Shown in pieces: positions 34,901 through 56,664 of a stretch of DNA of 64,000 bases. The stretch's first letter is position 1. The number at the start of each line of letters is the position of its first letter. Under the pieces are notes generated by a model. That model saw nothing but the letters and a program-made list of their open reading frames with translations. It was not told the origin of the DNA and did not search any database. Position numbers and translations under genes: made by a program. Source of the stretch: Branchiostoma floridae (taxonomy: Eukaryota); the NCBI RefSeq assembly GCF_015852565.1, contig NC_136205.1, positions 3,066,707 to 3,130,706 of the forward strand, written 5' to 3'.

Positions 34901-37900
34901 TTATCTTGTATTACGTAACACTTTGAAAATTGTTTGGCTGAAAGGCTGATATAAAATCAAACTATTATTAAATAAACTGTTTTCTTCCCCTCTGTAGGTT
35001 GTTGTGTTGCAGTCCTATAAGAATGAAAACAATGTTGCCATCGAGGCCAAGTACGTGTTCCCGCTAGATGACATGGCGGCTGTTGTCGGGTTTGAAGCAT
35101 TCATCAACGGGAAGCACGTGGTCGGAGAGGTGAAGGAAAAAGAGGAGGCACATCGCGAGTACCGACAGGCGATCAGCGAGGGACATGGTGCTTACCTCAT
35201 GGACGAAGAAACTCCTGTAAGATTCTTGATGACTTAAATTCAACAGTTATTTTTGCAGTATTAGTACTGTTAGTAGTATTTTGTGTAATAGCATTGTGGG
35301 TAAAACTGTTTGCTTTGTATTTGAGATTTTGTGTGTTCAAACCCCAGGTGAGTCATAATAGAGAATTTTGAAGAAATTATGTCATACAGTTTGATGCAAA
35401 AGAATGTGTACTGCCTTATACAGAGTTTTGGGTCACAACAAAATAGCAATATACAAGAGGGCCAAGTAAGTATCCTGGTGGAACCCCAACCCTAGACCAT
35501 ATATCTTTTGACAAGAAAAACTAAGTTTCCACTGGTCAGTCTGTGAATGTTTTACTACCTTCTTGTCACTGCGCCAACAAACAATGTTTCAGTGTCAAAG
35601 AGGTACATTCAATGACACATATCTTTTACATACAGTGACAATTGTTATGATTTGTGTTTTTCTAGGATGTGTTTACAGTGAGTGTAGGGAACCTGCCCCC
35701 CAGAGCCAGTGTACTGATCAAGATCACCTACGTCGCTGAGCTGGCAGTGGAGGGAGAAAACATCTGCTTCAGACTGCCTGGCAGCGTCGCTCCCTGGCAG
35801 GTGTGTTTGTCTAGAACTTTGTTACCATGGCAACAAGACGTTGTTATCTCCGTGTACGAATGATTCATTCTGTTTTTTTTATATTCTTGGTGTCCGTAGT
35901 TATTTGAATACACTGTCAGTAGATTTTGAGTGTCAGGAAGTGAGTGGGAAAATGGTGTCACAGTGTAAACTTGGGAGAGTGACAGTTCATGAAAGTATCA
36001 GACATGACAGGTCATCGGGTCAATGGAAGAGGCTACTAATTTCACGGGGAGACTATTTTTTTGTCTGTGTATTTGCAGTTATGCATTTTCCACATGCAAG
36101 TCACACTCACTATAGAGTAACAGGAAACAATCATTATTTAATGGACATATAATAAATGTAATAAGGACTTCGAACTCTTGTTTTGGATGTTGAGATAATA
36201 TGTACATTGTATAATGTTTGTTTGATCACAACTAAGATTATTCAAAGATTTTTTAAGCTTAGATTTTCCACCAACAGAAAGATTCACTCTCTGAGAAGAT
36301 CCAAAAGGACCTGGAAACTGTCAAGGTGGAAAAGGATGCTGGGAAAGAATTCTCCCTCCAGGTCGCCATGGAGATGCCCTTTGACATCAGGACCATCCAA
36401 TCACCATCTCACAAAATCAGAGTGAAGGTAGAAATTACTTCCATGACCTGTTTTGACTCAGCCAAGGCACTCTGTTTCTTTGTCACTAACCATTCTGTTA
36501 TAATTACAAAATGTACTTTGAAAATGCTGATGAGCTTTTGCAAACAAAACAATAAAAACAGTCTTGAAAACAATTATCCAATCAGAGGACTAGATTTTTT
36601 TTAGAATGTTCCTAAATAATGTATTGCATGCTCAGAAATGATTAATGTCATCTCTGACTACTGAGGGCATAATTTTTGTCCTGTAATTTTCTTTGATTTT
36701 TCTTGCTATCCTCTTATATTTTATGAATATACTATTAGATGATAAAGCAGTGGTTTGATAATAGATATTACTTCATTCCTCAGTTATGAATTTAGATGAA
36801 ATGGTTATCTGTGTGTAGGGTCAGAGAACGACTCGGCATAATTATAAGTTTCTCTTTATCCCCACCAATCAGAGGACAGCAAGCAAGGCTGTAGTGGAGC
36901 TGGAGAAGAACTGCATGCTGGGAGCTGGTTTCCTGCTGCAGGTTGGGCTGGCTGAGATCCACGTACCCAGGATGTGGGCGGAGCGGCACCCTGACAAGGA
37001 CAGCCAGGTTTGTTGGTTTGTTTGAACTTTAGCATGAAAGCTCATCTGTGTTGGTATAATCGATACTGAAGGTTTTTAATTGTCATTCAACACAAGAAAT
37101 TGCTCTCCTCGAATTTTCGGTAGCACATCCGTCAACCTTTGACAGGAGTGGTGGTTCAATTACTCTAAACATGTGATGTAGGAACACGAATGAAGAATCG
37201 TAGATGCTTGGCAAGCGGTATCGGCCCCCGTCTCTGTTAAGTGTCGGCTAGTGTGATCTTATGTGTATGGCCTCCTTTACCCCCCTCGCGAAGTAATCCG
37301 GTTCAGTATCCAATATTTGTGCTTTGTTTTAACTTTGTTTCTTCATAAAAGCTCAAATTGTCCTGCAGGCTGCTTTTCATTGAGGTCATGAGGGAAGAGA
37401 CAAGGGTCAGACTAAGTGTATAACAGAGATACAATACAGTTAATGATGATATGCATTCTTTGATTAATATCATCATATAGCAGGATATCAGTTGATGATA
37501 CTCTTTCCTCTTTTTATTTGAGGGACTGAAAAAGTCACAAAGTTGTGTTTAAGGGTTGAACTATGCCATCTCTTTTTTTAAACCCTCTTCATTATACACA
37601 GGACTGTGAGGGTCAACAAGTTATACTAAGTCTTATGTGGGGGTGAAGTCTGCTATCTCTAATGATTTTACTTAAAAAAAATCTGTTCATACACAGGCCT
37701 GTATGCTGACCTTCTACCCAGAATTCCAAGCAGAGGTTATGCAGGGTCATGAGGTCATCCTCCTCTTGGACGGGTCCAACTCCATGCGGGGGTCAGCTCT
37801 GGAGGCAGCCAAGAAAGTCGCCCTGCTCTGTCTGTGCCATCTACCAAAGGAATGTAGCTTTAACGTTGTTGCTTTTGGCACAGGTGTGTTCTTAATCATT

Positions 37901-40900
37901 TTCATTTTGAAAACAGATTTGCAATGGAATATGATTCTATTTAACTTTCTTTGGTGCTGATTGGCTATCACACGATGCGGTCTCATTTCAAATGATTCTA
38001 TTTACCTTTCCTTGGTGCTGATTGGCAATCACATGAGGCATTCTCATTTGAAATAATTTTATTTACCTTTCATTGGTGCTGTTTTGCAGATTTGTAACGG
38101 AATACAAAATAGTCTGAAGCTTCTGTACGTTGGTGCAGTCGCTGTAGAAGAGCAATTTGAAAGAGTGCTCAACAAATTTCATCGATGAAATATCAAACGT
38201 TTGATAGGATATAGCCCTTATTCATGTCCTTGTTAGGTATTGTGATGTAACTAGTTTTTCTTTATAAACTTTACAAATTCCATTTTGTAGGATATGAGGA
38301 ACTGTTTGCTGTGAGCCAGTCCAGAACCAAGTCCAATGTCTCTAAGGCTGAAACCTTTATCCAGGTATAGTCTTCATCTCATTGTTATTGAGCATTATAA
38401 CTTATCCCATGTAACTGTCTTTCAAGGTTTATTAGGCAAGAAAACAGTATACTGTTCCTTTTTGTTTGCCATTCTAATGAAATCTTGTTTCATCTGTCCT
38501 TGGTGCTGATTGGCTGTTGCATAGGTAGTCTTCTCCTATGTAATGATTATAAACTTATCTTACCTTGGTGCTTATTGGCTGTGACATAAAGAAGTCCTCT
38601 TTCAAATGATTCTATTTCATCTTTCCTTGGTGCTGATTGGCTATCACATAAGGTGGTCTCATTTCAAATGATTCTATTTCATCTTAAGTTGGGTTCTGAT
38701 TGGCTGTGACATTAAGCAGTCTCCTTTCAAATGATTATATTCTATCTCTCCTTGGTGCTGATTGGCTATTACATGAGCAGTCTCATTTCAAATAATTTTG
38801 TTTTATTTAGTTAATGCTGATGGCTTGGAATTTAGGCAGTCTTCTTTCAGATGGTTCTATTTTATTTCTCCTTGGTGCTGATTGGCTATCACATGAAACA
38901 ATCTCATTTCAAATGATTCTATTTCATCCTACGTTGGTGCCAATTGACTATCACATGAGGCGGTCTCATTTCAAATGATTATATTTCATCTTACATTTTA
39001 CTGATTGGCTGGAACTTGAGGCAGTTTCTTTCGAGTGATTTTATCTAGCTTTCCTTGGTTCTGATTTGCTATCATCTCATGCAATGTTATTAAAACTAGT
39101 CTATTTTATCTCTCCTTGGTGCTGATATGCTATCACGTTGTGTAGTCTTTTATCTAAGTACTAGTTTTATCCCACCATTTATACTGAATGTCTCTTGGAT
39201 AATCCCATTTGATATCTGATTTCTCTTCCCTTACTAAATATCAAAACACAGCAAACCATACACTTTTTGTAGGTGATTTTCAGTAGTGATACATTTGACA
39301 AGAAAGCCATAGAAAGAAAAATGTTCTTACCAATTTCTGCAATTATTTTATCAGAATGTCAAAGCATCCAAGGGAAACACAGATGCATGGAGACCCCTGC
39401 GTGGGTTCTTCCTGCTTCCGCCGTTGGGTAAAACACGGAACGTGTTCCTCATCTCTGACGGACATGTGAACAACCCTGACCAGACTCTGAGCGACATCCA
39501 CCAACATTACCAGGAGACTAGGGTCTTCAGCTGTGGTGTGGGGTAAGGACAAATCTCACAAGATTTTGTGTACTATTCCTTGAACCTTGAACCTTGACCA
39601 TTCAAGATTCAAGATATAACAAATTGATCCTGACTGTCCGTAATAATTAGCAACCAATGACACTACTGGGAGACAAGGGTCTTCAGCTGTGGGGTGGGGT
39701 AAGAATGCATCTCACAAGATTTTGTGTACTGAACTTGATTCTACTGGAAGATACATTTGTAAGTCAATGTGTAACAACAGACAGATCCTGGCTGTCCATC
39801 ACAATTAGCAGTTTAACCAATGATGGTATGGTAATTAGTGTTTAGATTGGCTGCAGTCTCGCAGACATTTGCATTTTTCTGTTTTATATCCTATCTTCTG
39901 CTGGAGGTGGATGGGGCTATATGAGATTGGTCTACTGGTTAAGATTTGGAGACTTACTTCATGACTTTTTAGTTACTTTTGTCACTCTTTTTCAACAATA
40001 ATAATATGTAAGATGGAAATAGAACAATTGAACATCACAAAGTCTGTAGAACTCATATGAAAATGATTAGTTACAGAGATTGCCTTCCAACATAGCAACC
40101 TTCCATTTTTTTTTCATGTAGAATGTAGCAACAACACAATAATTCTTGATGCTTGTTTTTAGGTCAACTTCCAACAAACATTTGCTGCGAGCCTTGGCCA
40201 GGGTGGGAGGGGGCGCCTTTGAGTATTTTGATGATAAAACCAAATCCAAGTGGGAAAAGAAGGTAAAGTCTATCATTTTATATCATGAACATGTAATATG
40301 TTTCATCGTTTCCCATAAAGTTTGCATTGCATGTATATCTTAATCTATATTGTCATTTATCAATAATTACTTTTAATACTCAATTTCATATACTTTATTA
40401 GGCTTTTATGCATTTTGTTATTTATGTATGAATATCAAAACACATAATTCATTACATACTCTCAGGCATACTTTCATACACATGTGCACACATAATTTTT
40501 ATACAAACACACAAACATACACATAGGCACAGAGACACAAACACACACACACACACACACACATACACACACCACTAAGGTCATCTAAGGTCAGGACACA
40601 CATACCTATATGGTATCAAGTTACATATACTAGGGCAGTATGCAACGGAAAGGTATATAAGTGCGAACTTTGTGTCAGCCTCAAACCTCAGAAGATATTG
40701 AATGTGCACAGCAAAACTGGTTTGGCTGACCAGCTAAAAGTTACACACTGAAACTTGTAGCTCCAGATGTCTTACTGAGGGATGACTGCAGTGCAAAATA
40801 TGTTGGTAGCTTAAAGAATGAGTCCACTCAACTTTATACATAATACACACAACACACATAGGTACACAGACACAAACACACACACATACACACACACACA

Positions 40901-43900
40901 CACACATGCACACACATGCATGTACAATCATGTGTACACTGAGAAGATATTAAAGCAAAGCTTAAACCTCAAGTTTACTGTGTTTGATATAGTGACTAAT
41001 ATACATGTAGATGTATCTAAAACCCTGTCAAATTCCTAGGTGAAAGCCCAGCTGTGGAAAGCTGCCCAGCCCGGCCTGACGTCCATGTCAGTTGATTGGC
41101 AGCAGTGGGATGATGATGCCCCGCCTCCTGTCCAGGCCCCCAATCAGATCGTCTCTCTCTTCAACGGTTTCCGTCAAGTGGTGTATGGCTACGTCCCACA
41201 CTGCACTCAGGTCAAAACATTCCAATATACATGTAGTACCTGTCAACTTGTAAACCTGAGTCTGTAAACTTGTAAAATGCAAAACTTTGTACTAATTTGT
41301 ACCAGGTCTCAATGTTGTGCTCTTTGGAATTTAGGCACAATATCCACACTCATCAGAATGAATACCACAGTATCCATTTTTATTAGAATGAATACCTAAC
41401 TGTTGTTAGTGTCACTAAAATGAGTGATGCTGAAGAAGAGTGATGGATGTCACTTGAAATGTCCGTTTTTTTATCCAGTTGTTGGGATTGAATTGTATTT
41501 GAATATTGTTTACCTGGGTGTCCAACCTTCATAAAGGACTTCTCAAACTAATCTGAAACATGGCTAATCATTCTAAAATGAAAAAGTTTGTAATTGAAAT
41601 TACTGTAAATGTATTTAAGTTCGCGGCGATTTAATTTTGCGGGAGTGGGAAATGGACTTTTCACCGTGGTTTTAATTTTGCAGTAACACCATAGACTACA
41701 GTCTAATACCATAAAGAAAAATGTTCGCGGTGGTTTTAAGTTTGCGGTGAGGTGGTCTCCGCGAAAACAGCTAGCATTAATCCACCACGAACATTTCTGC
41801 ATTTACAGTATTGTTTTTATTTATTCCAGGCCACCCTGAAGGCTGTCATCAACAACCGGGAAATCAGCACCATGGTCTCCACCACTGAACTCAGCATCAC
41901 CACAGGCAAGGTGGGACAGGTTTTTGGCTACACCTCTGGGGTGGAGGCCATATTTCTTTTTAATAGCTGGGATTATTTCCTGTAACCAGGCATTTTAATT
42001 TGTTTGTTGATTGTTTATTTAAGGATTGAGACCTATACTAAACATACATGAGCAAAAGAGAAATAAAGCAACAGCTGCAGTAACAACACAGAATAAGAAC
42101 ATTCATACAACATTTTGGCAACTGTCTGTCACCTTCCTCAGAGCAATTCTGAGGGCCACTACACATTTTAGCTAAGGTGTCGCTGCTAGCAATGCACGTT
42201 AGGAACTATGACAGCCATTTATGCGTTCCCAAATATAACATTATACATATAACATATATTGATCACAATGATTGTTGTCATATATAAAATTACAGATGCC
42301 GACAGTCAGTAGATCCTGGTTGTGAATAAAAAAAATGTTACATTATAATAGTGATTTTCCAACCTGACTAAATGATTCAAAGGACTAACCACACAGTTTT
42401 GTCCCAGATCCTGCACCAGCTGACGGCCCGTGCTGTCATCAGAGACTGGGAGGACGGGACCCTGCATGCAGACAGGATGCACCATGAGGTCAGCGTGTTC
42501 TAAATCCTGACATTGAGAATCAGTGTGGTATTCCTCATGTCATGTGTGGCTGTGCTGGGTGGTTGTCTTTGTAGTACCGTAGCACAGTTTTCGTTGCTCA
42601 TTTGTACATTCTGCGGTCATGATCTTCTAATGGTTGATAGGTCTTTGGCTCATGAAAAAGTGGTATAATTTTGGGCCCTCTGGCAGCTTTTTTTAAACTG
42701 TAGGAGGCGATGTTTGAAAAAAAGAGTAAGGCAGGTAGGGGTTGACGGATTGTCACAATTTTTGCTATGTAGATGGCTTAAGAGATAATTGACATACTTA
42801 GTTGGCTTGTGTAAAGGGGTATAGTTTGGGGCTCTTTGGCAGCTTTTTTTGTAACTGCAGGAGCAGGATCTTCATGAATTTTGGTTAAAAAAAAACTTTG
42901 TAGATGGCTTTAGAGATAATTGACATGCTTATCTTTCTCTCTTTTTTTCCAGACAAAGAAAATGGGTCTGAAGCCGTACATTATCGACCTTAGTAAGGAG
43001 TACTCCATCGTCACACAGTTCACCAGCTTTGTAGCTGTGGAGAAGCGGGAAAAGGTGAGAAAAATTTTGGTGACACCAAGGGAACAGAACTTGTACTTGT
43101 AACAGTTACTGTAAGTGTGGAAATAACTCATAAGCCAGAGCGAAAAAAAAAAAAATCCATGAAAACAAAAATTCTGCCAAACCACAGGACTAAACATCCA
43201 GACCATTTTTTCCCAGGCTTGGTTTGTCTTATGGTCCACATCCAGTAAACCTGTAAGATACAATCATCGCCATTTCAATAAATATTTATTCATTTATTGC
43301 TATTCTTGTTCAAAGAGGGGAACGCCCCATGCCCTGACCATTTGCCCCCTTACCCTGAGGAGCGGATCCTCTGACAGTTATAAAATTCTGATTAACCAGG
43401 GGTAGTTTAAGGACAAACGTGGGCATAGTTTGTTTGTTTTTTGAGAAAAGGGGAAAAGCAACACACTCACGGATGTTATTCATAGAATGAAGTCAGTGTG
43501 GCCTATGACATAATGATTGTTTGATGCAGGATGAAGATCTGACTACCGGTGAGGGTCCAAGCATCACAGAACTGGTGGAAAAAGAGAGTGTGGACATCCT
43601 ATCCTACATGGGATGGGAGAGGGACAAAGGGGAAGAGGAGGCAGAGGAAGTGTATAAGGTATGAGCCAAATTAAAGTGGAATTTTGGCTTGCTTTAAAAT
43701 GAAAGATTTTTGTGAAGAAAATCAAGTACGTGTGCCTTAAATTTTTTGACTGGACATCGCATAGTTTCTTGTATTCAATTTCTAGAATAAAGTGCTTGAT
43801 GGACAGATCACAGAAAAGGCCATTGAACACAGCTTGGAGTTCTACACCACTGCAGTGGAGACTGCAAAAAGGGAGCTTCCCCCAACCCATCCAACAGTGT

Positions 43901-46900
43901 TGCAGTCACAGCTCTCTTTGGCAATGTTTTATCACAACAAATTGAATATGCAGGACAAGGCCTGCCTGGTTGCAAAGGCTGCCTTTGACGATGCGATCGC
44001 GGAGTTGGATACTCTGAGCAAGGAAAGCTACAAGGACTCGACCTTGGTGATGCAGCAGTTGAGAGACAACTTGACATTGTGGTCTGCTGAGGACGGGGAA
44101 GAAGAGAAAAAAGCCAACGAAAAGAAAAAGGTCCTTATTCCTAGTGTCAACCATAGCTCACTTTGGCTAATCAACCTTCTCGGATGAAGCCCATCTTACA
44201 TACCCAACCATGGCCTCGCGACCTTCTCCAGACCATGGTTGGGAGTTAAGCCCCTGTCACACATAGCCGACCATGCCCTCCCAACCTTCTTCAGACCATG
44301 GTCAGGAGTTAAGCCCTTGTCTTACATACCTGACCATGGCCTCCCAACCTTCTCCAGACCATGGTCAGGAGTTAAGCCCTTGTCTTACATACCTGACCAT
44401 GGCCTCCCAACCTTCTCCAGACCATGGTCAGGAGTTAAGCCCTTGTCTTACATACCTGACCATGGCCTCCCAACCTTCTCCAGACCATGGTTGGGAGTTA
44501 AGCCCGTCTTACATACCCAACCATGGCCTCGCGACCTTCTCCAGACCATGGTTGGGAGTGAGACCATCAGTAATTTGGACCAGACCAAACTTGGCAAAGT
44601 CATATTCTTCTAAGGTGCAAGCAGATTGGTAAAATGGAATATGGTTGGTAGCAAGTCATTGAAAGGTCCTGAATTTGTGACAGGGGATGTGACTAGTACA
44701 TAATTTTGCATGGAAACGGGAATAGACCGACTGAGTGTGCTTGTTAAAACTAAGAGTAGATTATCTTCAAGACCAGAATCTTCAAATTACCAATTGAATT
44801 TATCATAACTTTTCTATATTTGATGTTGTCAACAGGTCATAGAGGAAGTTTATTATGAAGAGGTTTTAATGGGAGGTAAGATACCAATTAATCTTTAATT
44901 TACATTTAGTTTAACCTTGTATTAAGTTGGAATTTATTGAATGGTTGATCATGAGATTTCAACACCAAGGACTCTATTGAAATGCACATCTTGATTTTGT
45001 TTTGGTATTTTTATTTTCCAACTTCTAGACTTGGATGATTTTGACATGGAGGACCCTGAGTATCTAGAAATGGGAGGTGCTGGTGTTTCCTCCAGCACAG
45101 AGGAGACAGAATCTGATGACTCGTGGGGATCAGATTCAGATCTAGATGAAGAGAGTGAATGTGAGGAAGGTAAGAAACTAGTTGGAAATCTTTAACGATG
45201 TATCTGCCCATCATTGCCAATCATCATCATCATATCTTGTCGCTCCATCTCCTTATCCAGCTGCGGGCTGCCTCATTGGCCTCTCTTAAGCTAAGGGCAC
45301 AACCTGCCGTACATACAATTTGTCTGTATGTTTTTTTAGGCCACGTTCCCCACATATGTCTGGAAACGCTTCGTCCGTACTGGCACATAGGGGGGCAAAT
45401 CCGCAGCCCGAGGGCACACAAAGTTTTGCCTGCACGTAAAGTTCTACAGCGTGTCTGCGTGCTCCGTCGGATTCTCTACGAGTTTGTATGGAGGCGGTAC
45501 TTACCACTTACGGATCCCAAAAGATTGCCCACGTATTTGCATGTACAGCGGGCTGTGCCCTTAGCTTTAGGTCACTGTCCGAGCAGGTTGGGCCAAGTTC
45601 ACAGTTTTGTAACAGATGTTGTATTGTTTGCAGCTCTGCTCAGTATGGGCAGGCTGCACTTGCAGATTTGTCCAATTTCATTTCCAATAACGTTTTCCCT
45701 AGAGTTTTGTTTATTTGATGTTTTTGGTTTTGATGTTGCTTAGACTGGAGATGGTTCGCTAGACCTAGTGGTTGACCAGTCAGGTTTGACTCACTGTGGA
45801 CTGCATATTTACTTTTGAATTATTCTATTGTAAATGCCCATATGGTTGTTTTATGTTCACAGTTTCACTGTTGCCGCTTTACCACATACTCAAACCACTA
45901 GGAACATTTCTCCATGACAGTAAATTGTTGCTACAGTATATGGTGCTATTGCATGTGAACTCAAAAAGTCCATTTTCCTGCTTCTGCAAAATCAGATCCC
46001 TGCAAACTTAATTGCATGTACTGTATCTTGTTCACAGGAGGTAAGGAAACAGTAAGAAAGAAAGATTCATCATCACCAGAGGAGGAAGAGAGTGAAGAAG
46101 AGATGGGGTTTGGATTGTTTGATGATGGTGAAGGTAGGATGGCAGGTGAGATGGTAGAGTACTGTAAATCTTGAGATGCATGGTTTTCATGGTGACATCT
46201 CCACCATGATACAATCGCCATACAAACAGCCCGGCTGGGCCCTGGGTTATAGAAATGTGACTTAGTCCTTACTGTTACCTAGTTTAATAAAAGAGACAAC
46301 GAAAAAGAACTGCAGTCAAAAATCATACTTTTGACACTTTTTGTTGGGCTCCGTTTTTCAAAGACACTAACTCTTGAATCTTTCTATTTCTTCAACAGCT
46401 GCTGATGAAAAAGAGGGTTCTCCTCTTGCTGATACTTATCAGATGAAGGCTAATGCCTTGCAATTGGAAAAAGGTCGATTTGCATCTCCCATGAGGTCTA
46501 GATCAAGGTCAAGGTCAGATAAACATTCCTCTCCAGCATACAGCCCGACATCTCCAGCATATAGCCCAGCATCTCCAGCATATAGCCCGACTTCACCTAC
46601 TGAGGAAGCCACAGAGGCTGAGTACACAAAGCCTAAACCTCTAGCTCGGAAAATGGCACCAAAACGGGTCGAAAAGGAGAAGGCACCAAGCCCACACTTC
46701 TCAAAGATGTCTGCAACGTTCTTGACCCGAGAATCTGAAAGGGGAAAGTCCTCATACAGAGTGTCAGATGAAGTTCAGGCTCGTGTAGATCGCCTTGATG
46801 ATCTAGTAGAAAAAGCTGATGCTCTTAGTGCACAAGCTGCAATATTTGGTGCTTCAACAACCATTTCTAAAGATGATGGCCTCTTTGCCGGTTCAACAGA

Positions 46901-49900
46901 GGCAAGTGTGCAGAAACCTAAACCTTTTGAATCCAAGCCAGGTATCGTTCAACCTGCCAGATTTACTTATGAAGCAACACCAGATACTACCAAGGGTCTT
47001 TTTGGCAGAAAGGCTGAACCAGAGACTGCAGGGTTTGCTCTTGCCCAGTCTGTGGCCGCAGAAGAGCCAGCTCCTGCTTTTGGTTTTGGAGCTCCAGTTG
47101 CAAGCTTTGGTGCAGAAACTTATGGAACTCGTGGTGTAGACTTGGATGCACCCATACCGTATGGCAAAATCCCAGTTGGTGGAACGCCGTTTGGTGAAAC
47201 GCCAGTTAGTGGAAAGCCGTTTGGTGAATCTGCTGTAAAGTTTGGAGGTCCTCCTGGCACTGTAGCTGGCACAAAGACGCAAGAGACTGCATTTGGTCAG
47301 GGTTTTGGTTATGCTTCAAGTCGTGGTGTAGGCTTTGGTAAAGCAACATTTGGTGAAGCAACATATGGCACACCATTTGGTGGAACACCATTTGCTGCAA
47401 CCACAGGTCTTTTTGCCCACTCAACTGCACCAAAGGATCAGGAAGCTGTGTCATTTGGTTTTGCTCCCTCTACTGACCAGAGCACAAGGGGTGGTGGAGG
47501 ATCCGCAGGTGGTTTTAGCTTTGGTTGGACTGCATCATCAGATTTGGGACAGAGGGATCGAGACAGGAGCTCCCCCCTAATTGGTGACACAAAAAAAGGA
47601 TTCAAGTTTGGAGCCTCACTTGAAGAGAAAGAAGAAACAGCAAGCTTTAGCTTTGGTGGATCCAGCCAGAAAGTGGTTCCTCAAGCAGGTTTTGGAGCTG
47701 ATCAACAGATGCAGCAGCAACAACAGCAACAACAACAACAGGCTCAGATGAATGTCTCTGATACTGCTCCTCAGAGGAAGATGCGAAGCAGGCTTCATGG
47801 CGCTATAGCTACCTTAAGTGAATCCAGTCAAGCAGAAATGGTTCCTGAAGCAGGTTTTATCTCCAATCAACGGATGCAGCAGCAACAGGCTCAGATGGAT
47901 GTTCTTCTTACTGCTCCTCCGAGGACAGGTGGTGGAAGGGTTCATGGCGCTTTAACTAGATTAGACGAATCCAGTCAAGCAAAAGTGGTTCCTCAAGCAC
48001 GTGTTGGCTCTCGAGCTCCTCAAAAAGCGAGGAAGACAACTGGCGGCAAGGCTGTTAGAGTTTCTTCAGGATTCAAGGACAGCTTGGACATCGTAGACAA
48101 GAGTTCACGCGACACTGGTGACTCTTGGAGAGCTGTCAAACGGACCGAGACCCCCATGGCTGGTTATTTTGACATGAGGGCCATGTCCCCTGCCTCAACA
48201 AATTCTGCACAGTCAGTTGCTTTTCAACAGCTGTCAGCATCTGCTGCCTTTCTACAGGCACCCCCTCCTGCGCCACCCCCTTGTTCAACAGGCCCCCCTC
48301 CTCTTCCACCCCGCTGCCCAGCAGGACCCCCTCCTCCAGCTGGTGCCCCTCCCCCACCACCACCACCCCCTAAGGGCATTCAGCTTCTTAAACCAAGAGC
48401 AAGTTTAAAGTCCAAAGCAGTAATGGCAGCACCCATGCGTGCACTATCCATGCCCTCGAAAGAATATGCCCCATTGCCCCCTCCTCCTCCAAGTTCAGTC
48501 GAACAGGCACCAGAGCTACCAGCATGGGATAGAGAAGAAGAACTGCAAATGGGGATTGTTGAAGAAAGCCGTGCAATTGCTTCGTATGAACAGATGGAAG
48601 AGTTAAAACCATTGTCAAGAAGTTTGGAATTGAGACAAAAGAAGAAAAAGAAACAGTTCGAAATCCAGGCAAGGTTGGAGGAAGAAAAGGTATCATTGGA
48701 CAAAGTCATGTACATGGATGAAAGCGTTCAAGAAGGAGAGGAAATGTACAGGTAAGAGTGAAGTCAACAAAGTACAGTCTCTACCTAATTAGATGAATGT
48801 GAAATTTTCCACAAATCGGGGGAATATTTTATCTGAGAGCTTGCAATTGCCTGGTTAATGTAGTACAGGCTTGTCCGCTGAAGATTGTAACTTGTAACTG
48901 TAGCCCTTTGGCCAATTTCTACTGATTTTTCACATAAACCACAGTCTCATAGGGACTAAATGAAATGTTTGATTTATGTAATTGTGGCAAACATGTTGCC
49001 TACCTGAGCTTTTCAAAGGAAAAATGTAAAGTTTCAATAAAGTTAACGTAAATTACTTTCAAGGACCAATTTAGGGACTATTCTTGACAATTGAACTACA
49101 TGTAAATCCAAGGTTACACAAAGCTTACCATAAAAGTGTACAACTTGTGATAACAGTCATTATTTTCCACATAAAGCAGTGTTCAAGTTTGTGGGCACGG
49201 GTCAATGGTATGCAAATGTATTGTGTCGTCTTAACTTTATTCTTTAAAGTAGGGGTTCTTTGCATTGAGCAATTTCATGATATTCATACAATGCCACATC
49301 GTTGTAAACACCACAGAAGACAGTATCTCTTTTGTTTAGTATTTTTGTTTGATGTCAGCCTGTTGTTACATGATTGTGTATAATTATGCCTTTGTCATCT
49401 TGTTCATGACTTTTGTAACATGTATTACAAACTTTATTTCAGGACCAGTTTGAGGGGGTTTTACGGTCCAAGAAGAGGTCCCGGTGCATATCACTCTGCC
49501 AGCTTTCATCTAACCTCAGGTAGGTTAATCAATTCATGTGCAAAGTAAGGCTAATATCAGTAGTCTAAGACTAGATGGAGAGCTTTTTTATATAGTCATC
49601 CAAAGATCTAAACTTCATTGAAATATCATGATAGGACCGTTGATCATTGAAATAGCATTGAAAGATGTTGTAGGTCACTAAAATATCATTAGTAAGACCA
49701 TACTTCAAATGGGGGCATGGGTTCGTATCCCACTTCTGACACCATATTGGCTTAGAGATTATCTCAGTCGTAGACTTAAAATGCTCAACATTTCTTGTCC
49801 CAAAGAACTAATTGCCAAGGTACAATGGACCTGTAAATACTGTACACAGTGTCCATCTTACCTGTCATGACCAGTGCAGATGTTAGTAATGACTGACTAA

Positions 49901-52452
49901 GAAAAAAGAAATTGCACAAATGTCTAATCTGAAAAATGATGCTCACAAGTAATCATGTTTTTTTTCAACCCTCTGCAGGTTCCTTTAGTGGAAGAGAAAT
50001 TGATGTAGTACCTGTCGTGACCACAAGGGGGAGGGTCATCACAGAGACAACTGTTGACCAAATCTTTGCACTGCTAAAGGTATCATTTGTAATTATTGGT
50101 TCAAATATAAAGTATAGTAGCTCTAGTTTTAGAGTGATGAATTACTGTAACATTAACACTGAATTTATTCTTTTTTGAGTGGGAGATTAGAATTGGTCTT
50201 GCACCCATCCATAATTTGACTGTTTTTTTGACAGTTTACTGCGTACTCGGATGCCAAAATGTTCTTTTATTCTTTATTGCAGGCGCTAATAGGCCCATAG
50301 TAAAAGCCTACTGTATAAGACACACAACATAACATAGATATTAAAACAACAATGCCACTCTATGTGTACAAGCGCCTCCTGATGTTTTTGAAATATTATT
50401 GTGTTATGGTAGAAAGAATCCAACTAGATGGAATGGGAAGAGTGGAAAAGCGGAATATACAAAAGAACGTTTGCGTCATGATAGAGTAATATTAGCATAG
50501 ATAATACCATAGTTTACTCATATAGCTAAAACCCAAGGATAAAACAATCAAATTTAATTATATTGCCCCCCTCCCCAGCACACTGACCAGGGGCTCTCCT
50601 ACTGGGAGTTCAGTCCAGAGTTAGACGAGTTGCTTGGGATTTCCAGTCAGCAGTGCATCCAGATATTTAACACTGCAGGACTCAAATCTCTGGGTAAGAT
50701 CTCATTCATGATCATGGTCATAAGGATATGTGTCCATACATGTAGTCAGGTCAGATGACAACTGTTTCCCTCCTGTCAACAGTCTTTCAGCCTGCAAAAA
50801 GAATCTTCACATCTATTTCCTTGCATGATACTAAGTAATTTTCGCAAACCCATCAACTTAGTTCATTGCCTAGAAGTGGTCAAATGGTCTTGCTTTGATC
50901 AAGCCATATTGCATTAACAAAAGGTAAAGAAATGAAATAAGGAATGAATGAAGACCTTTATTCTACATTTTTGCCCAACTGAACTAAGCACAGGTCACAA
51001 GAAAGACAAAACACACAATGTTATGCAAAAGTACAATATTATTTGTATCATAGATCTAATCTAGTGAAGAAGTTTGGCTTCTTCTCCCTTCCTGGTAATG
51101 GTAAAAATGTAGGCTTGTATGTTGTTAGGTTTGTCAAAATGCAACTCATATCTATTAAGTGAATCTACTTCCTATTTCTATCATTAACATAGTGCATAGT
51201 CCAATCAACAACGAAGTGAACTTCATCTTCATTTATCTTCATCTCCAGGTGTGAATGTTGCCAGGCAGATACTGCAGCTGGTGGCCACCTTTGAACAAGC
51301 TCGTACAAAAAACATTGAAAAATACCTTTAAGTTAGCACTGAGTGGGACATAATTTTTTATTTTTATTTTGATCTCCAGGTGCGAATGTTGCCAGGCAGC
51401 TGCTGCAGCTGGTGGCCACCTTGCTGGTTGTGCAGCTGCTGATGCTGCACCTGCCGCAGCTGTTCCCCAGCTGCAGGAGCCTGCTGCACCTGGATGTGGC
51501 GCAGGTGCCGGCCAAGTGGTGCAGTGCATTGCAGCAGGTGCTCACATGGGCCAAGGTAGGATTTTGTACTACAAAACTACCAAAACTAGACTGAGTTTGT
51601 ACTACAAAAACTTAATTTGTATACACTTGTTGCAAGAAGAGGAAAGAGACATGTAAATGATAGATGTAATAATAGTGGCGCAGGCGTCAGCCACTTGGTG
51701 CAGCACACTGCAACAGGTGCTCACATCGGCCAAGGTAGGAGTTACCTACTGATAATATGAGGGGCAATCAATAAGTTTACACAGAAAAAAGGTGCACAAC
51801 TCAAATTTTGGAGCATTATAAACTATATGAATGTGCACCAAAATTCAATGGGCCAAGGTAGGAGTTGGCTACTTAGTATGAGGGGTGATCAATAAATTCT
51901 TGGACTCATGAATAAAGGTGCTTAACTCAGATTTTGGATCTGATGTAAAGTATAAAGTATTATATGAATTTGTACCATAATTCAAATCATTGTGATCATT
52001 ATTGTACAGGCAACACCCAGTAATGGTAGGTAAGAGAGAAGAAAAAACATGGACAATTGAGCTGCAAGCTGAGGTGTGCATGTCAACTTGTTCTGCTAAA
52101 TGTCGGATACTAATAAAAGAATTAGGCACTGAAGAGGACGAATTTGAAAGAGAAATCAAGAAGCTTAAGATCACACCAATGTTCACTCATCAGGTATAAG
52201 CTTTGTTGTACTGTTGACCAATCGCTTACGTGACATGAATTATGAGGAAGACTGCAGTTGAAATTTCTATGTACTATTTTCTTGTGGTGGAACAAAATTT
52301 TAATTCTGTTATCATATAAATCTATTCGTTTATTAATTTTTCTATTTTCACAGAGTGTTGACACGATGCACCCATCAGTGTACTCCCGTTTGGAGCTTGG
52401 GAAGAGTTGGGAGGACCTGACCACAAAGCTGATCGGTGTCAGCAATGCATAG
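21542..52452 (+). CDS. PARP4: Gene model (39 coding exons): vault poly(ADP-ribose) polymerase (PARP4/VPARP) homologue. Domains: BRCT, PARP regulatory and catalytic, VIT, vWA, long disordered mosaic linker, C-terminal vault-interaction region.
   Basis: Colinear by-eye similarity to human PARP4 across all globular parts. Examples: [119 protein letters not shown]. All exon phases are consistent. ATG at 21542, TAG at 52450-52452. Confidence 0.9.
22171..22366 (+). CDS. PARP4: PARP4 exon 2 (BRCT, C-terminal part)
   Basis: [65 protein letters not shown]. ttctag/gtaatt. Confidence 0.85.
22636..23133. mobile_element. Foldback element with about 230-bp arms and a central G36 homopolymer (PARP4 intron 2)
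   Basis: Left arm cattatagagaattgctaaactttcattccaacac... The right arm is its reverse complement, ending at 23133. G-run at 22904-22939. Confidence 0.8.
23247..23545 (+). mobile_element. 5'-truncated copy of the SINE-like element seen at 11360-11900
   Basis: gggcatgttcgggcatga...ggaagtcctcctag...gcatctgctgg..cacacgttgcatacagttg is colinear with 11567-11815. Confidence 0.7.
23715..23775 (+). CDS. PARP4: PARP4 exon 3
   Basis: (A)[19 protein letters not shown]. ttccag/gtaagg. Phase 1 to 2. Confidence 0.7.
23978..24101 (+). CDS. PARP4: PARP4 exon 4
   Basis: [41 protein letters not shown]. Compare human QDFEVAKYNTLEK. cttaag/gtgagt. Confidence 0.75.
24484..24615 (+). CDS. PARP4: PARP4 exon 5
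   Basis: [44 protein letters not shown]. taacag/gtgaga. Confidence 0.75.
24762..25111. mobile_element. MITE with cagggctcgaaat termini (intron 5)
   Basis: 13-bp perfect TIR. The interior holds many gggtgcac repeats. Confidence 0.65.
25290..25454 (+). CDS. PARP4: PARP4 exon 6
   Basis: [55 protein letters not shown]. taccag/gtaagt. Confidence 0.75.
25835..26005 (+). mobile_element. Interspersed repeat family B copy (intron 6)
   Basis: Colinear with 8363-8535. Confidence 0.7.
26092..26229 (+). CDS. PARP4: PARP4 exon 7
   Basis: [46 protein letters not shown]. Compare human VSDLVEMIWAEALGHLEHML. ctgtag/gttcgt. Confidence 0.8.
26893..27069 (+). CDS. PARP4: PARP4 exon 8 (PARP regulatory/helical domain)
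   Basis: [59 protein letters not shown]. Compare human AEGILLLVKAALKNGETAEQLQKMMTEFYRLIPHK...KKADLCQ. Confidence 0.85.
27073..27426. mobile_element. hAT-type MITE (family D), copy 2, inserted 3 nt into intron 8
   Basis: 16-bp perfect TIR cagggctctagccagc / gctggctagagccctg. 8-bp TSD gtcaggta at 27065-27072 and 27427-27434. Confidence 0.85.
28013..28176 (+). CDS. PARP4: PARP4 exon 9 (regulatory to catalytic junction)
   Basis: [54 protein letters not shown]. Compare human LIRDMVNVCETNLSKPNPPSLAKYRALRCKIEHV. Confidence 0.85.
28199..28382. repeat. (GAGT)n microsatellite, intron 9
   Basis: gagtgagtgagt... for about 180 bp. Confidence 0.95.
28694..28885. mobile_element. Foldback MITE, intron 9
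   Basis: ccccctcacattag...gagtctgcgagctctaaattacgaggaggcatgaccctga, with its reverse complement forming the second arm. Confidence 0.7.
29065..29173 (+). CDS. PARP4: PARP4 exon 10 (catalytic; His of the H-Y-E triad)
   Basis: [36 protein letters not shown]. Compare human VLQIFRVGRVNETTEFLSKLGNVRPLLHGSPVQ. Confidence 0.85.
29363..29391 (+). CDS. PARP4: PARP4 exon 11 (29-nt microexon)
   Basis: AQNFVGILS. Compare human NIVGILC. tttacag/gtaggc. Needed for frame continuity. Confidence 0.75.
29827..29922 (+). CDS. PARP4: PARP4 exon 12 (catalytic; Tyr of H-Y-E)
   Basis: [32 protein letters not shown]. Compare human [31 protein letters not shown]. Confidence 0.9.
30280..30605 (+). repeat. Two extra tandem copies (152-bp period) of the acceptor and 5' half of PARP4 exon 13 (pseudo-exons)
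   Basis: Copies start at 30302 and 30454; the real exon starts at 30606. Both extra copies diverge after GATGTGTA into TCAACACGGCATCGATTCCTAA, which gives an in-frame stop. Confidence 0.85.
30606..30789 (+). CDS. PARP4: PARP4 exon 13 (catalytic)
   Basis: [62 protein letters not shown]. Compare human LSTSIKYSHPGETDGTRLLLICDVALGKCMDLHEKDFSLTEAPPGYDSVHGV. Confidence 0.9.
31017..32610 (+). mobile_element. 5'-truncated non-LTR (LINE) retrotransposon: reverse-transcriptase C-terminal part plus 3'UTR, in PARP4 intron 13, same orientation as the gene
   Basis: ORF 31113..32291, open upstream to 31017. RT motifs: [44 protein letters not shown] (YxDD). (CAAA)n tail at about 32595-32610. Confidence 0.85.
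32794..32837 (+). CDS. PARP4: PARP4 exon 14 (catalytic Glu of H-Y-E)
   Basis: [14 protein letters not shown]. Compare human DDEFVVYKTNQVKM. ttacag/gtatgt. Confidence 0.85.
33018..33185. mobile_element. MITE family C, intact copy (intron 14)
   Basis: Termini acagtagaagcca ... tggcttctactgt. Colinear with the split copy at 18330-18488 and 19697-19712. Confidence 0.75.
33803..33921 (+). CDS. PARP4: PARP4 exon 15
   Basis: [40 protein letters not shown]. Compare human KYIIKFSMPGDQIKDF. Confidence 0.85.
34405..34541 (+). CDS. PARP4: PARP4 exon 16 (VIT domain start)
   Basis: [46 protein letters not shown]. Compare human AGLQDASGNLVPLEDVHIKGRIIDTVAQ. Confidence 0.85.
34998..35216 (+). CDS. PARP4: PARP4 exon 17 (VIT)
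   Basis: [73 protein letters not shown]. Near-identical blocks to human PARP4. Confidence 0.95.
35666..35800 (+). CDS. PARP4: PARP4 exon 18 (VIT)
   Basis: [45 protein letters not shown]. Compare human [26 protein letters not shown]...ATVAPWQ. Confidence 0.95.
36278..36427 (+). CDS. PARP4: PARP4 exon 19
   Basis: [50 protein letters not shown]. Compare human QSFSLTMSIEMPYVIEFIFSDTHELKQK. Confidence 0.85.
36873..37007 (+). CDS. PARP4: PARP4 exon 20
   Basis: [45 protein letters not shown]. Compare human RTDCKAVISTMEGSSLDSSGFSLHIGLSAAYLPRMWVEKHPEKESE. Confidence 0.9.
37697..37883 (+). CDS. PARP4: PARP4 exon 21 (vWA domain with MIDAS DxSxS)
   Basis: [62 protein letters not shown]. Compare human ACMLVFQPDL...VIICLDCSSSMEG...VNIIQFGT. 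Confidence 0.9.
37925..38090. repeat. About 60-bp minisatellite with a ggtgctgattggct core (CCAAT-box-containing), intron 21 block
   Basis: Three units. Same family as 38480-39175. Confidence 0.8.
38291..38364 (+). CDS. PARP4: PARP4 exon 22 (vWA)
   Basis: [25 protein letters not shown]. Compare human GYKELFSYPKHITSNTMAAEFIMS. Confidence 0.85.
38480..39175. repeat. About 60-65-bp minisatellite (about 11 units) with a ccttggtgctgattggct core, intron 22
   Basis: Repeated tcatttcaaatgattctatttcatct(t/c)tccttggtgctgattggctatcacat units. At least ten intact ATTGG (reverse CCAAT) across both blocks. Confidence 0.85.
39355..39542 (+). CDS. PARP4: PARP4 exon 23 (vWA)
   Basis: [63 protein letters not shown]. 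Compare human MGNTDFWKTLRYLSLLYPARGSRNILLVSDGHLQDE...RLFACGIG. Confidence 0.9.
40163..40262 (+). CDS. PARP4: PARP4 exon 24 (vWA end)
   Basis: [33 protein letters not shown]. Compare human STANRHVLRILSQCGAGVFEYFNAKSKHSWRKQ. Confidence 0.9.
40505..40572. repeat. (CA)n microsatellite, intron 24
   Basis: acacacacac run. Confidence 0.9.
40843..40922. repeat. (CA)n microsatellite, intron 24
   Basis: cacacacaca run. Confidence 0.9.
41040..41210 (+). CDS. PARP4: PARP4 exon 25
   Basis: [57 protein letters not shown]. Compare human SVSVKWQQLNPDVPEALQAPAQVPSLFLNDRLLVYGFIPHCTQ. Confidence 0.9.
41405..41535 (-). mobile_element. Interspersed repeat family B copy, reverse orientation (intron 25)
   Basis: The reverse complement matches gacacccaggtaa...caactgga...cggacatttcaag of the 8363-8535 type. 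Confidence 0.55.
41601..41810. mobile_element. MITE family A, full copy, 20 bp upstream of the PARP4 exon 26 acceptor
   Basis: tactgtaaatgtatttaagttcgcgg ... cacgaacatttctgcatttacagta. Confidence 0.8.
41830..41910 (+). CDS. PARP4: PARP4 exon 26
   Basis: [27 protein letters not shown]. Compare human [27 protein letters not shown]. Confidence 0.9.
42408..42488 (+). CDS. PARP4: PARP4 exon 27
   Basis: [27 protein letters not shown]. Compare human MIHKLAARALIRDYEDGILHENETSHE. Confidence 0.9.
42953..43054 (+). CDS. PARP4: PARP4 exon 28
   Basis: [34 protein letters not shown]. Compare human [34 protein letters not shown]. Confidence 0.9.
43530..43658 (+). CDS. PARP4: PARP4 exon 29
   Basis: [43 protein letters not shown]. 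Compare human VSELIAKEDVDFLPYMSWQGEPQE. 129 nt, phase 0-0. Confidence 0.85.
43786..44130 (+). CDS. PARP4: PARP4 exon 30 (candidate cassette): in-frame exon encoding the C-terminal half of a 14-3-3 protein
   Basis: [115 protein letters not shown]. Compare 14-3-3 zeta [71 protein letters not shown]. tttctag/gtcctt. 345 nt, phase 0-0. Confidence 0.65.
44185..44575. repeat. 63-bp minisatellite (about 6 units) immediately 3' of the 14-3-3-like exon
   Basis: Unit gttaagcccttgtcttacatacctgaccatggcctcccaaccttctccagaccatggtcaggag. Unit starts at 44308, 44371 and 44434. Confidence 0.9.
44836..44875 (+). CDS. PARP4: PARP4 exon 31 (40 nt; acidic, Tyr-rich)
   Basis: [13 protein letters not shown]. caacag/gtaaga. 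Shifts the phase from 0 to 1, as required to enter exon 34. Confidence 0.6.
45029..45169 (+). CDS. PARP4: PARP4 exon 32 (acidic linker)
   Basis: [47 protein letters not shown]. ttctag/gtaaga. Phase 1-1. Confidence 0.6.
46038..46133 (+). CDS. PARP4: PARP4 exon 33 (acidic linker with a ribosomal P-stalk-tail-like motif)
   Basis: [32 protein letters not shown]. ttcacag/gtagga. Phase 1-1. Confidence 0.6.
46399..48751 (+). CDS. PARP4: PARP4 exon 34: 2.35-kb exon encoding a low-complexity/disordered region (RS run, CTD-like heptads, FG repeats, polyQ, H3-tail-like peptide, polyPro)
   Basis: Part of track ORF 46374..48755. Acceptor ttcaacag at 46391-46398, donor ACAG|gtaaga at 48751/48752. Phase 1 in and phase 2 out, matching the neighbouring exons. 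Confidence 0.8.
49443..49519 (+). CDS. PARP4: PARP4 exon 35
   Basis: (R)[25 protein letters not shown]. tttcag/gtaggt. Phase 2 to 1. Confidence 0.65.
49979..50079 (+). CDS. PARP4: PARP4 exon 36
   Basis: [34 protein letters not shown]. ctgcag/gtatca. Phase 1 to 0. Confidence 0.7.
50579..50693 (+). CDS. PARP4: PARP4 exon 37 (C-terminal vault-interaction region)
   Basis: [38 protein letters not shown]. Compare human QTEDGFWKLTPELGLILNLNTNGLHSFLKQKGIQSLG. Confidence 0.85.
51380..51555 (+). CDS. PARP4: PARP4 exon 38 (C-terminal region)
   Basis: [59 protein letters not shown]. Compare human VKGRECLLDLIATMLVLQFIR...ISRNIPWAFEAIKQASEWVRR. Confidence 0.8.
52354..52452 (+). CDS. PARP4: PARP4 exon 39 (terminal, with stop)
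   Basis: [32 protein letters not shown]. Compare human QYPSICPRLELGNDWDSATKQLLGLQ. ttttcacag acceptor, phase 0. Confidence 0.85.
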   Translation, partial: SVDTMHPSVYSRLELGKSWEDLTTKLIGVSNA

Positions 52453-53086
52453 TAGTCACATGGCTGATTTCAGTAACAAAACAGTAGAGGGTAAAAGTTG
52501 TCTATTTTTGGAGTAGCATGTCAATAAGTACCAGTAGCATTTCATATTTCTTTCAAGATTGTATTATAAATCTTGAGACGTTTTAAAATTCTAAGAAACA
52601 TACTTTTATACTCAAAGAATCTTGAGACTAAATATAAAGATGATCTTGGAAAATCTCAAGACTGATGCAAAACATTTCAAGATTTACCACAAAATCTCAA
52701 GATATTTGGAATAAACCCCAAGATTTTTCGATTTTCAACTAGGTATGAAGACCAATATAATCTGTTGAGTACCATATGTTTTTCACAAACTATCAGCTAT
52801 CTAAGTTTAAGCTGTAAGAGGCTAGAAGTATTTGTATAAAGTGCTCTGCTTAGTCCAATAATAGTCTTCTAAGTTTTCAGTAATGTTAAGACAGCTACAT
52901 GTATATTCTGACAGTAAGAGATCAGTAACAGGTACTCATAGGAAAACTTAAGTTTAACTGTTCTTTTATCAATGATTAAGTTACATTGTCTTTGTTCTGC
53001 GTAAATATGATGATATCAATAATTGTAATTTTCATTTGTACTAAATTGAATATAGCATTGGTGTGTTAAGCATGTACGAAAGAAAA

Positions 53087-53092
53087 AATAAA
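53087..53092 (+). terminator. PARP4: Candidate polyadenylation signal AATAAA for PARP4
   Basis: AATAAA about 640 nt after the stop. Position only. Confidence 0.25.
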
Positions 53093-53269
53093 GTTGTCTT
53101 ACACCTTTATGTTTTATGTCATTTAGTACTTTTTTTTTAGATATCCATGTCTAGATGCCTCCCTCTACATCTACCAATAATGCATATCTATTGACCCCCT
53201 CATTGTGTACACTTCCATTCCCTTCCGTTTTTTACGCACACACTCCCACTGACAAACACACACATTTAC

Positions 53270-53440
53270 ATAGGTGAGCGTCCACACACACACGCACACA
53301 CACACACATAAATATACACACGCACACAAACGCAATTGCAACAAGAGTTCGTAGACCTCAGGCCTGCATGAAATGTAATTGGTGTATGTTGAGATGTTGT
53401 GTATTTGTGTGTGTGTGTGGGTGGGGGGGGGGGGGCTGTG
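53270..53440. repeat. (CA)n/(GT)n and poly-G microsatellite cluster
   Basis: cacacacgcacacacacacac ... gtgtgtgtgtgtgggtggggggggggg. Confidence 0.85.
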
Positions 53441-54935: not shown

Positions 54936-55505
54936 AGTGTCAAGTTCAAGCACTAGGAGGCCCAAAATCAAACCTGACCACCAGGACACAAGCAACAATC
55001 CACGTAACAAATAGCAACACAATGGCACCTTGCGTTCCGGAGATACAGCGCACGCGCCGTGCCCGCAGAAAAGGTAACCTGGAATGTCAAGTTCAAGCAC
55101 CAAGGGCGCCAAAATCAAAATTGAGAATTATTCAGCCACCACCAACACATGTGCCAAATATCATTGCGCCCGCACCAACCGTTCAGAAGATATAACTCCG
55201 GAAAACCCCCTCCCCGACACAAAATTCGACCTGCCGCGTCAGGTTCAAACGCGACAAGGCCCAAAGTCAATCCTAGGCAACAAGCAACAACTCCCCACCC
55301 ATGCACCGAAAATCGTCGCAATGGCGCGTATCGTTCCGGACACACAGCGCCAAAAGTGCCCCAAAAAACACAAAAAATGCCACCTTCAATATTAAGTTCA
55401 AGCACCAGGAGGCCCAAAATCAAACCTGAGTGTCAAGCTAACACCCCCAACCCACGTACCAAAAATCGTCGTGCTCGCACCATCCGTTCTCGAGATACAG
55501 CGCCC
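54936..55505. repeat. Tandem repeat, about 4 units of 148-154 bp (intergenic)
   Basis: Unit starts gtcaagttcaagcac at 54938, 55086 and about 55392, plus a diverged gtcaggttcaaacgc at 55238. Confidence 0.8.
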
Positions 55506-56578: not shown

Positions 56579-56664
56579 GTAATCCCGACTTAGAGATGGA
56601 GGGGGTAGAATGGTGATCCCGTTCTTGAGGAGAGTCACACATGTGCACATCGAGTACCTTTAAG

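Follow-up and report, generated by a model that had tools for sequence, protein, structure and literature searches.

A ribosomal P-stalk-tail look-alike in the linker of amphioxus PARP4, possibly one bait in a vault-tethered decoy array

We analyzed a 64,000-nucleotide stretch of the Branchiostoma floridae genome (NCBI RefSeq assembly GCF_015852565.1, contig NC_136205.1, positions 3,066,707 to 3,130,706 of the forward strand; hereafter the window, with positions counted from its first letter), which holds the PARP4 gene together with a small exon whose peptide resembles the C-terminal tail of the ribosomal stalk proteins P0, P1, and P2 (Table 1). The motif concerned, 12 residues including MGFGLFD, is encoded at 46091-46126 (+), inside an exon with symmetric boundaries (phase 1-1), in the linker that connects the MVP-binding part of PARP4 with its ITIH-like region. 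The PARP_reg, PARP, VIT, and VWA exons (Pfam) were identified upstream on the same strand, in the domain order of PARP4, and exons matching the MVP-binding part of the B. belcheri PARP4 (P0002) follow downstream, in agreement with the first-pass annotation of the window, which had placed the motif within PARP4. The domain PF26156 (PARP4_MVP-ID) is recorded for orthologues, and the segment of P0002 in which it lies is matched by the exons at 49963-58726; a Pfam scan of the single window exon 51379-51555 alone gave no match. The tail of the MVP-binding part (P0002 residues ~1278-1339) matched both 52255-52440 and 58637-58726 (+), 6 kb apart, and this double match could reflect a duplicated or alternative terminal exon.

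Table 1. Features of the PARP4 locus in the window, with the evidence for each.
Feature	Position	Strand	Evidence and remarks
PARP regulatory exon	26872-27171	+	Pfam
PARP catalytic exon	30589-30804	+	Pfam
VIT exon	35004-35237	+	Pfam
VWA exon	37703-37960	+	Pfam
End of ITIH-like region, directly before the linker	41040-43655	+	tblastn of B. belcheri PARP4 (P0002), 52-93% identity
14-3-3 C-terminal-half exon	43786-44130	+	Pfam 14-3-3, E 2.2e-30, profile 129-223 of 223; ends ..KKK, phase 0
Mini-exon, 40 nucleotides, phase 0 to 1	44836-44875	+	Connects the 14-3-3 exon to the acidic exon; holds the start Met of P0001
Acidic exon, 141 nucleotides, phase 1-1	45029-45169	+	LDEE..EEG kept in three species
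P-stalk-tail look-alike exon, 108 nucleotides, phase 1-1	46038-46145	+	Translation; boundaries common to B. belcheri and B. lanceolatum
Motif core: acidic anchor and hydrophobic FGLF anchor	46079-46126	+	PDB matches are P0/P1/P2 tails only
Splice donor GT	46146-46147	+	In NCBI model P0001; kept in three species
Large disordered linker exon	46399-48752	+	Corresponds to the large exon of mammalian PARP4, which evolves rapidly
RS repeats	46485-46517	+	Large linker exon
Three Pol II C-terminal-domain-like heptads	46530-46598	+	RPB1 match in PDB search, E 2.6e-5
VAMP/synaptobrevin SNARE-motif look-alike	46773-46880	+	Weak Pfam Synaptobrevin in P0001 and P0002; PDB YKT6, VAMP2
FG repeats, nucleoporin-like	47070-47666	+	Large linker exon
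H3 N-terminal-tail look-alike	48015-48062	+	PDB matches all but one H3 tail peptides, E about 0.4
Polyproline, formin/WASP-like	48258-48371	+	Large linker exon
Exons matching the MVP-binding part of P0002	49963-58726	+	tblastn, P0002 residues 1173-1339

From the 14-3-3 exon through the large linker exon, the sequence forms one frame with canonical splice sites throughout, and the available annotations divide it in different ways. NCBI models it as a separate 910-residue "uncharacterized protein LOC144867646" (B. floridae x B. japonicum; P0001; 100% identity), which begins at a Met inside the mini-exon; in B. lanceolatum, one model stops after the 14-3-3 exon, with neither the stalk exon nor the large exon included in either flanking model; in B. 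belcheri, the model P0002 ("parp4") runs from the ITIH-like end across every linker exon into the MVP-binding domain. The separate NCBI model and the omission of the stalk and large linker exons in B. lanceolatum would suit an annotation or assembly artefact, with the motif belonging to a separate gene, LOC144867646, or to a pseudogene fragment in a PARP4 intron, but we consider such an artefact improbable, as the open frame and the splice sites are kept in three species, the frame runs on from the 14-3-3 exon, and full-length PARP4 transcripts or models carry the motif in other species. Three annotations with three different split points suggest instead that the pipelines had trouble with the low-complexity region. 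Based on frame continuity and the B. belcheri model, the stalk exon probably belongs to the PARP4 gene.

The stalk exon opens behind the acceptor ..TTCACAG (46037/46038) and closes at 46145 before the donor (CAG/GTGAGA). Its end had been set at 46133 in the first-pass annotation; P0001 reads past this position, and B. belcheri and B. lanceolatum retain the later donor along with the CACAG acceptor, so the end lies at 46145, and the GT at 46134-46135 is at most an in-frame alternative donor. Orthologous exons were located at 21649-21768 in B. belcheri (L001) and 7588-7707 in B. lanceolatum (L002), and the lengths in the three species (108, 120, and 120 nucleotides, B. floridae first) are all multiples of 3, with phase 1-1. 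After the motif, the frame reads DGEGRMA and continues for ~790 more codons; the motif is internal, as had been stated, and not an extreme C-terminus. The 14-3-3 exon does lie upstream, although not two exons upstream as first counted: the mini-exon had been overlooked, and because it sits between the 14-3-3 exon and the one then called exon 32, the earlier exon numbering is off by one. The counterpart of the mini-exon in B. lanceolatum encodes VIDVADYEEEAY. The mini-exon recalls the EEVD end of Hsp70/Hsp90 or the DYEEV tail of tubulin, and scallop has TTIEEDV; the acidic exon contains DPEYLEM. A 63-nucleotide minisatellite (44194-44559; 5.8 copies, 91% matches), open in two frames and outside every gene model, occupies part of the intron that separates the 14-3-3 exon from the mini-exon.

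When the exon peptide (43 residues) served as a phmmer query against the entire PDB, all 21 matches were P0, P1, or P2 C-termini (best E 0.006), which upholds the likeness to these tails first noticed from the letters. Against the human P2 tail (EKKDEKKEESEESDDDMGFGLFD), the peptide aligned over 23 residues with 14 identical, including the upstream KKD. The stalk proteins uL10/P0, P1, and P2 (tail ..EESEESDDDMGFGLFD) have in common with the PARP4 motif the two anchors (the acidic/Ser run and FGLF), an identical heptapeptide, MGFGLFD, and Lys residues upstream, and in dictyostelid PARP4, the likeness spans EESDxDMGFxLF. Whereas the stalk tail is a free C-terminus on the ribosome, the PARP4 copy is internal, is carried by a vault ADP-ribosyltransferase, and comes without a dimerisation or uL10 domain; a Pfam scan with E up to 1 returned no ribosomal family for P0001 or P0002, neither Ribosomal_60s (P1/P2 dimerisation) nor Ribosomal_L10. 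MGFGLFD was observed once in the six-frame translation of the window, against an analytic expectation of 4e-5, and chance resemblance was rejected because the motif is both conserved and recurrent. Accidental likeness arising from a different linear motif, such as the G3BP/NTF2-type FGDF, phi-x-FG, or the acidic-FG-x-aromatic motif of adaptor ears, was likewise rejected and appears highly improbable: MGFG fits phi-x-FG and FG repeats occur in the same linker, but all 7 residues and the acidic/Ser run match the stalk tail, the PDB matches are stalk proteins only, FGLF does not fit FG[DES]F, and a dictyostelid variant, MGFDLFG, has no FG.

We compared the stalk exon peptide among the three amphioxus species, whose readings include EEEESDDMMEFGLFDE. 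FGLFD is invariant, and its coding sequence in B. belcheri carries two synonymous changes (GGA>GGG, TTG>CTG). The motif half of the exon retains 76-82% nucleotide identity, and the 200 nucleotides of intron on each side are no more alike than shuffled sequence. Across the linker as a whole, invariant positions make up only 31% of the ungapped columns and the species agree pairwise at 38-51% of positions, with the best conserved 10-mers found at FGLFD.., at other look-alike motif stretches, and in the FG repeats and polyproline. These comparisons show that the stalk motif is under purifying selection in amphioxus, and the conserved motifs are islands of constraint within a fast-evolving disordered linker. 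Absence of the motif from close relatives with no sign of constraint, which the first-pass annotation had named as an observation that would speak against it, was looked for in the three Branchiostoma species, and the motif proved to be kept and constrained.

To follow the motif in other taxa, a profile of the ITIH-like end was run against 1.84 billion representative proteins, and the best 150 of the 2,798 matches were examined. The start of the linker was set by a hidden Markov model, and 108 representatives had >100 residues after the ITIH-like region; as the representatives are related proteins, counts among them are not independent events. The pattern [MILF][GEA]F[GAMSD][LM]F[DEGN] occurred 16 times in the linkers of 11 of these 108 representatives, and N-terminal of the linker, it did not occur in 121,000 residues. 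The motif was identified in the PARP4 of Argopecten irradians (scallop; 8 of 8 RefSeq isoforms) and in the PARP4 linkers of Chamberlinius (millipede; MGFGLFDN), Pycnogonum (sea spider; DDDDMGMGLFG), and Amphiprion ocellaris (clownfish), as well as in the dictyostelids Cavenderia, Heterostelium, Synstelium, and Dictyostelium purpureum. The PARP4 of D. purpureum carries four tandem copies, two being the identical unit EESDEDMGFDLFGDY, and the PDB matches of the dictyostelid repeat unit EESDEDMGFDLF were solely P2 and P1 tails. The dictyostelid tandem-motif region was also used as a query for stalk proteins with a terminal MGFDLFG and gave no match at E <= 0.01. A 5.7-kb contig, obtained from each of two independent sequencing runs, holds an uninterrupted open reading frame (ORF; P0106) from BRCT to the C-terminus that contains MGFGLFDD, which places the motif in the mature full-length PARP4 mRNA of the organism sequenced. 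Many fishes, frogs, and one lungfish have a degenerate acidic-FG-hydrophobic motif at the position of the stalk motif, 20-110 residues past the ITIH-like end; the versions seen among P0058 (the eel Synaphobranchus), P0069, P0071, P0062, P0068, and P0067 include 5 tandem MDEVGFAP, SDDDFGLDVSF, SDFMGYCMFDN, and GFALFDD. Neither the motif nor a degenerate version was found in Lemur catta, the sole mammalian representative examined. Judged from this distribution, the motif is not specific to amphioxus and is either ancient or recurrently selected.

Beyond the stalk motif, the amphioxus linker carries a series of other look-alikes (Table 1). The 14-3-3 exon is, to judge by its profile match, a true copy of the C-terminal half of 14-3-3, encoded in one piece. 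The look-alike of the H3 tail is the single best conserved linker 10-mer in the three amphioxus species, and B. lanceolatum is more canonical, with YSPTSPS x3, PRKSTGGKA, and KADALQAQSAVF. The matches of the short look-alikes are weak singly; taken jointly, and being kept in three species, they are not. The large linker exon also contains a polyglutamine run alongside the FG repeats and polyproline, and FG and polyproline tracts were observed in the PARP4 linkers of scallop, millipede, clownfish, and lungfish as well.

We then surveyed linker modules across PARP4 by comparing 159 PARP4-like sequences, along with P0001 and P0002, by blastp to a small hand-compiled set of conserved host proteins, and a Pfam recheck of 8 of the 10 extracted linkers confirmed 14-3-3, ubiquitin, actin, Hsp70, EF-hand, synaptobrevin, and Ras. 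Modules of 14-3-3 were identified in 18 representatives (full-length but diverged in dictyostelids), ubiquitin in 15, and the N-terminus of actin (~residues 2-72) in 7, including Nematostella. Others were found in particular organisms, namely VAMP2 residues 39-87 in lungfish (65% identity; Pfam Synaptobrevin E 6.9e-10), calmodulin in Mytilus (64% identity), a Ras/Ran-like domain in Pelomyxa, H3 residues 12-29 in Sinanodonta, and long arrays of C-terminal-domain heptads in Sycon and dictyostelids, and an intronless metagenome ORF combines the substrate-binding domain of Hsp70 (379-544; Pfam E 1.9e-44) with ubiquitin, actin, and FMGFMLFDD. The set of modules varies strongly between lineages. In several representatives, the in-line ubiquitin ends in ..LRLRGG followed by Pro (LRLRGGP; P0092, P0115, P0118, P0127, P0135, P0139, P0145, P0148, and P0191). 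A junction of LRLRGG with Pro resists deubiquitinases, and ubiquitin would thus stay fused. The survey showed the PARP4 linker to be a mosaic that differs between lineages and is assembled from copies, many of them incomplete, of highly conserved host hub proteins. A search of one literature collection found no description of these PARP4 linker modules.

The first-pass annotation had read the 14-3-3 and stalk exons as terminal exons captured from other genes. The mosaic supports its notion of built-in pieces of other genes, and the small phase 1-1 exons are compatible with modular insertion, whereas neither a recent, local capture nor a rule of terminal exons agrees with the data. Recent capture, in the amphioxus lineage, of an RPLP gene's last coding exon, parallel to the 14-3-3 exon and possibly functionless, would account for a small exon with symmetric boundaries, for the 23-residue likeness to P2 that extends to the upstream KKD, and for a neighboring 14-3-3 exon clearly copied from a real gene. 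We nevertheless give it little probability, because molluscs, arthropods, a teleost, and dictyostelids carry this motif in their PARP4 linkers as well, and because conservation with synonymous change argues for function. In scallop, too, the motif (longest isoform P0204) has a small exon to itself, immediately ahead of the large linker exon, albeit with phases 0-2 in place of the 1-1 of amphioxus, so orthology of the two exons is uncertain. The copied pieces are also generally not terminal: they include N-terminal stretches (the H3 tail, actin 2-72), internal ones (VAMP2 39-87, Hsp70 379-544), and whole domains (ubiquitin, calmodulin), and several of them share one large exon.

We propose, with a probability of roughly 0.4, that the stalk motif may serve as a docking bait for proteins that bind the P-stalk tail, above all ribosome-inactivating toxins, and that it may form one module of a vault-tethered decoy array. 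A short linear motif copying the stalk tail, placed in the disordered linker between the enzymatic/ITIH-like body and the vault-anchoring domain, would dock proteins whose surface evolved to grip that tail, and the first candidates would be ribosome-inactivating N-glycosidase toxins of the ricin, Shiga, or trichosanthin type. Many PARP4 copies per vault, together with the tandem copies of dictyostelids, would make the bait multivalent, and by drawing the toxin away from ribosomes, it would place it close to the ADP-ribosyltransferase. The remaining modules might bait other effectors or toxins likewise, by analogy with the integrated decoys of plant NLRs. In this respect, bacterial toxins such as ExoS/T, ExoY/YopO, ExoU, and CyaA/EF depend for their activation on host cofactors, of which 14-3-3, actin, ubiquitin, and calmodulin are the classical ones, and VAMP2 39-87 spans the sites of clostridial neurotoxins; both points are taken as leads only.

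The likeness to the stalk tail, its constraint in amphioxus, its recurrence in PARP4 linkers, its presence in a full-length mRNA, and the mosaic of host hub proteins around it all count in favor of a role as bait, and several published observations are in line with it. Ribosome-inactivating toxins use the acidic patch and FGLF as anchors (PMC3280276; PMC5322317), with Shiga-like toxin 1 contacting DDD and FGLF through its A1 chain (PMC3280276), and stalk-tail peptides, the shortest only 4 residues long, keep ricin A chain from binding the ribosome and thereby inhibit it (PMC6162817). The reconstituted vault holds ~20 PARP4, and its component TEP1 carries a TIR-like NADase (bioRxiv 10.64898/2026.05.01.722283). 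Further, the mammalian PARP4 linker has undergone recurrent positive selection and was proposed to be a pathogen interface (PMC4038475, PMC10450202).

Other observations weigh against a bait. Its function is deduced here from resemblance, and as monomers, tail peptides reach only high micromolar affinity for ricin A chain (PMC6162817). The natural tail is a free C-terminus, and the PARP4 motif is internal and usually followed by another acidic residue; the heptapeptide itself is MGFGLFD in the window and MEFGLFD in B. belcheri and B. lanceolatum. The NCBI and B. lanceolatum annotations split the gene, and the joining of the stalk exon to the catalytic exons in one amphioxus mRNA is a prediction. 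Finally, retention of the motif from amoebae to fish could equally reflect a conserved host partner.

Such a partner is the basis of the physiological alternative, in which the motif would dock host binders of the stalk tail (eEF2, eEF1A, eRF3, eIF5B, or GCN2) to PARP4 or the vault for ADP-ribosylation, for sequestration, or for coupling the vault to translation, with the other modules recruiting host readers of, for example, ubiquitin, the Pol II C-terminal domain, and the H3 tail. The native partners of the tail are indeed translational GTPases and GCN2 (PMC11624264, and established knowledge), the range from dictyostelids to chordates fits a conserved partner, and tandem copies imitate the multivalent stalk. 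The motif is, however, patchily present (11 of 108), degenerate in many fishes and amphibians, and absent in Lemur catta; the strong difference in modules between lineages fits an arms race better than housekeeping; and many modules are fragments, such as actin 2-72 and half of 14-3-3, unable to do the job of the parent protein. Overall, we judge physiological recruitment to be unlikely, although it is the main rival of the bait reading. If the motif did recruit eEF2 or other GTPases, vaults would be linked to translation, and PARP4 would become a candidate for the cellular eEF2 ADP-ribosyltransferase. To our knowledge, going by the older literature, a cellular ADP-ribosyltransferase acting on eEF2 has never been identified.

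The proposed bait can be set beside known systems. Synthetic peptide mimics of the P-stalk that inhibit ricin A chain and Shiga toxins (PMC6162817, PMC3280276) resemble the PARP4 motif in that the stalk tail is off the ribosome in both and could in principle occupy the toxin's ribosome-binding pocket; the mimics are free laboratory peptides of micromolar affinity, whereas the PARP4 motif is genetically encoded, conserved, and possibly multivalent. The integrated decoys of plant NLRs and the "tripwire" of NLRP1/CARD8 (PMC5814044, PMC5368246) share with PARP4 a defence-linked carrier that holds copies of effector targets and varies in content between lineages, and such copies of pathogen targets, with lineage-specific gain and loss, were found among the PARP4 linker modules. 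In place of an NLR, the carrier would be a vault PARP with many different baits in series in a disordered linker. The disordered region of mammalian PARP4 (exon 30; Daugherty et al. 2014, PMC4038475) takes the same position, between the ITIH-like and MVP-binding parts, and consists largely of one big exon; recognisable copies of host proteins have not been reported there, whereas amphioxus, invertebrate, and amoebozoan linkers carry them.

More tentatively, and with greater doubt than we attach to the stalk motif as a bait, PARP4 may be the bait-carrying arm of the vault, with a linker that across Amorphea would form a modular array of integrated decoys of the host proteins that toxins and effectors hijack most often, namely the stalk tail, 14-3-3, ubiquitin, actin, calmodulin, Hsp70, a small GTPase, VAMP, the H3 tail, and the Pol II C-terminal domain. 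The stalk-tail module would then capture ribosome-inactivating toxins inside the vault, beside the ADP-ribosyltransferase and the TIR-like NADase TEP1. If true, this would give a concrete innate-immune role to the vault, a particle that has lacked an assigned function for 40 years, and would extend the principle of integrated decoys from plant NLRs to animals and amoebae; the sole earlier evolutionary clue to the function of vaults and PARP4 was the unexplained positive selection in the mammalian linker.

Mobile-element sequences were also identified in the window, including an ORF with a reverse-transcriptase match (RVT_1, E 6e-19) at 31113-32291 (+) within a PARP4 intron, and a Mos1-type transposase helix-turn-helix fragment at 17027-17347 (-) upstream of PARP4. 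At 60018-61244 (-), an intronless ORF of 408 residues gave a full-length match to Pfam GT4-conflict (E 3e-77), the glycosyltransferase family 4 of conflict systems, and this neighbor of PARP4 looks like an immune or conflict-type gene; an adjoining ORF of 280 residues at 62805-63647 (-) had no Pfam match. A series of EGF-like exons at 2666-10163 (-) belongs to a multi-EGF gene unrelated to the stalk motif.

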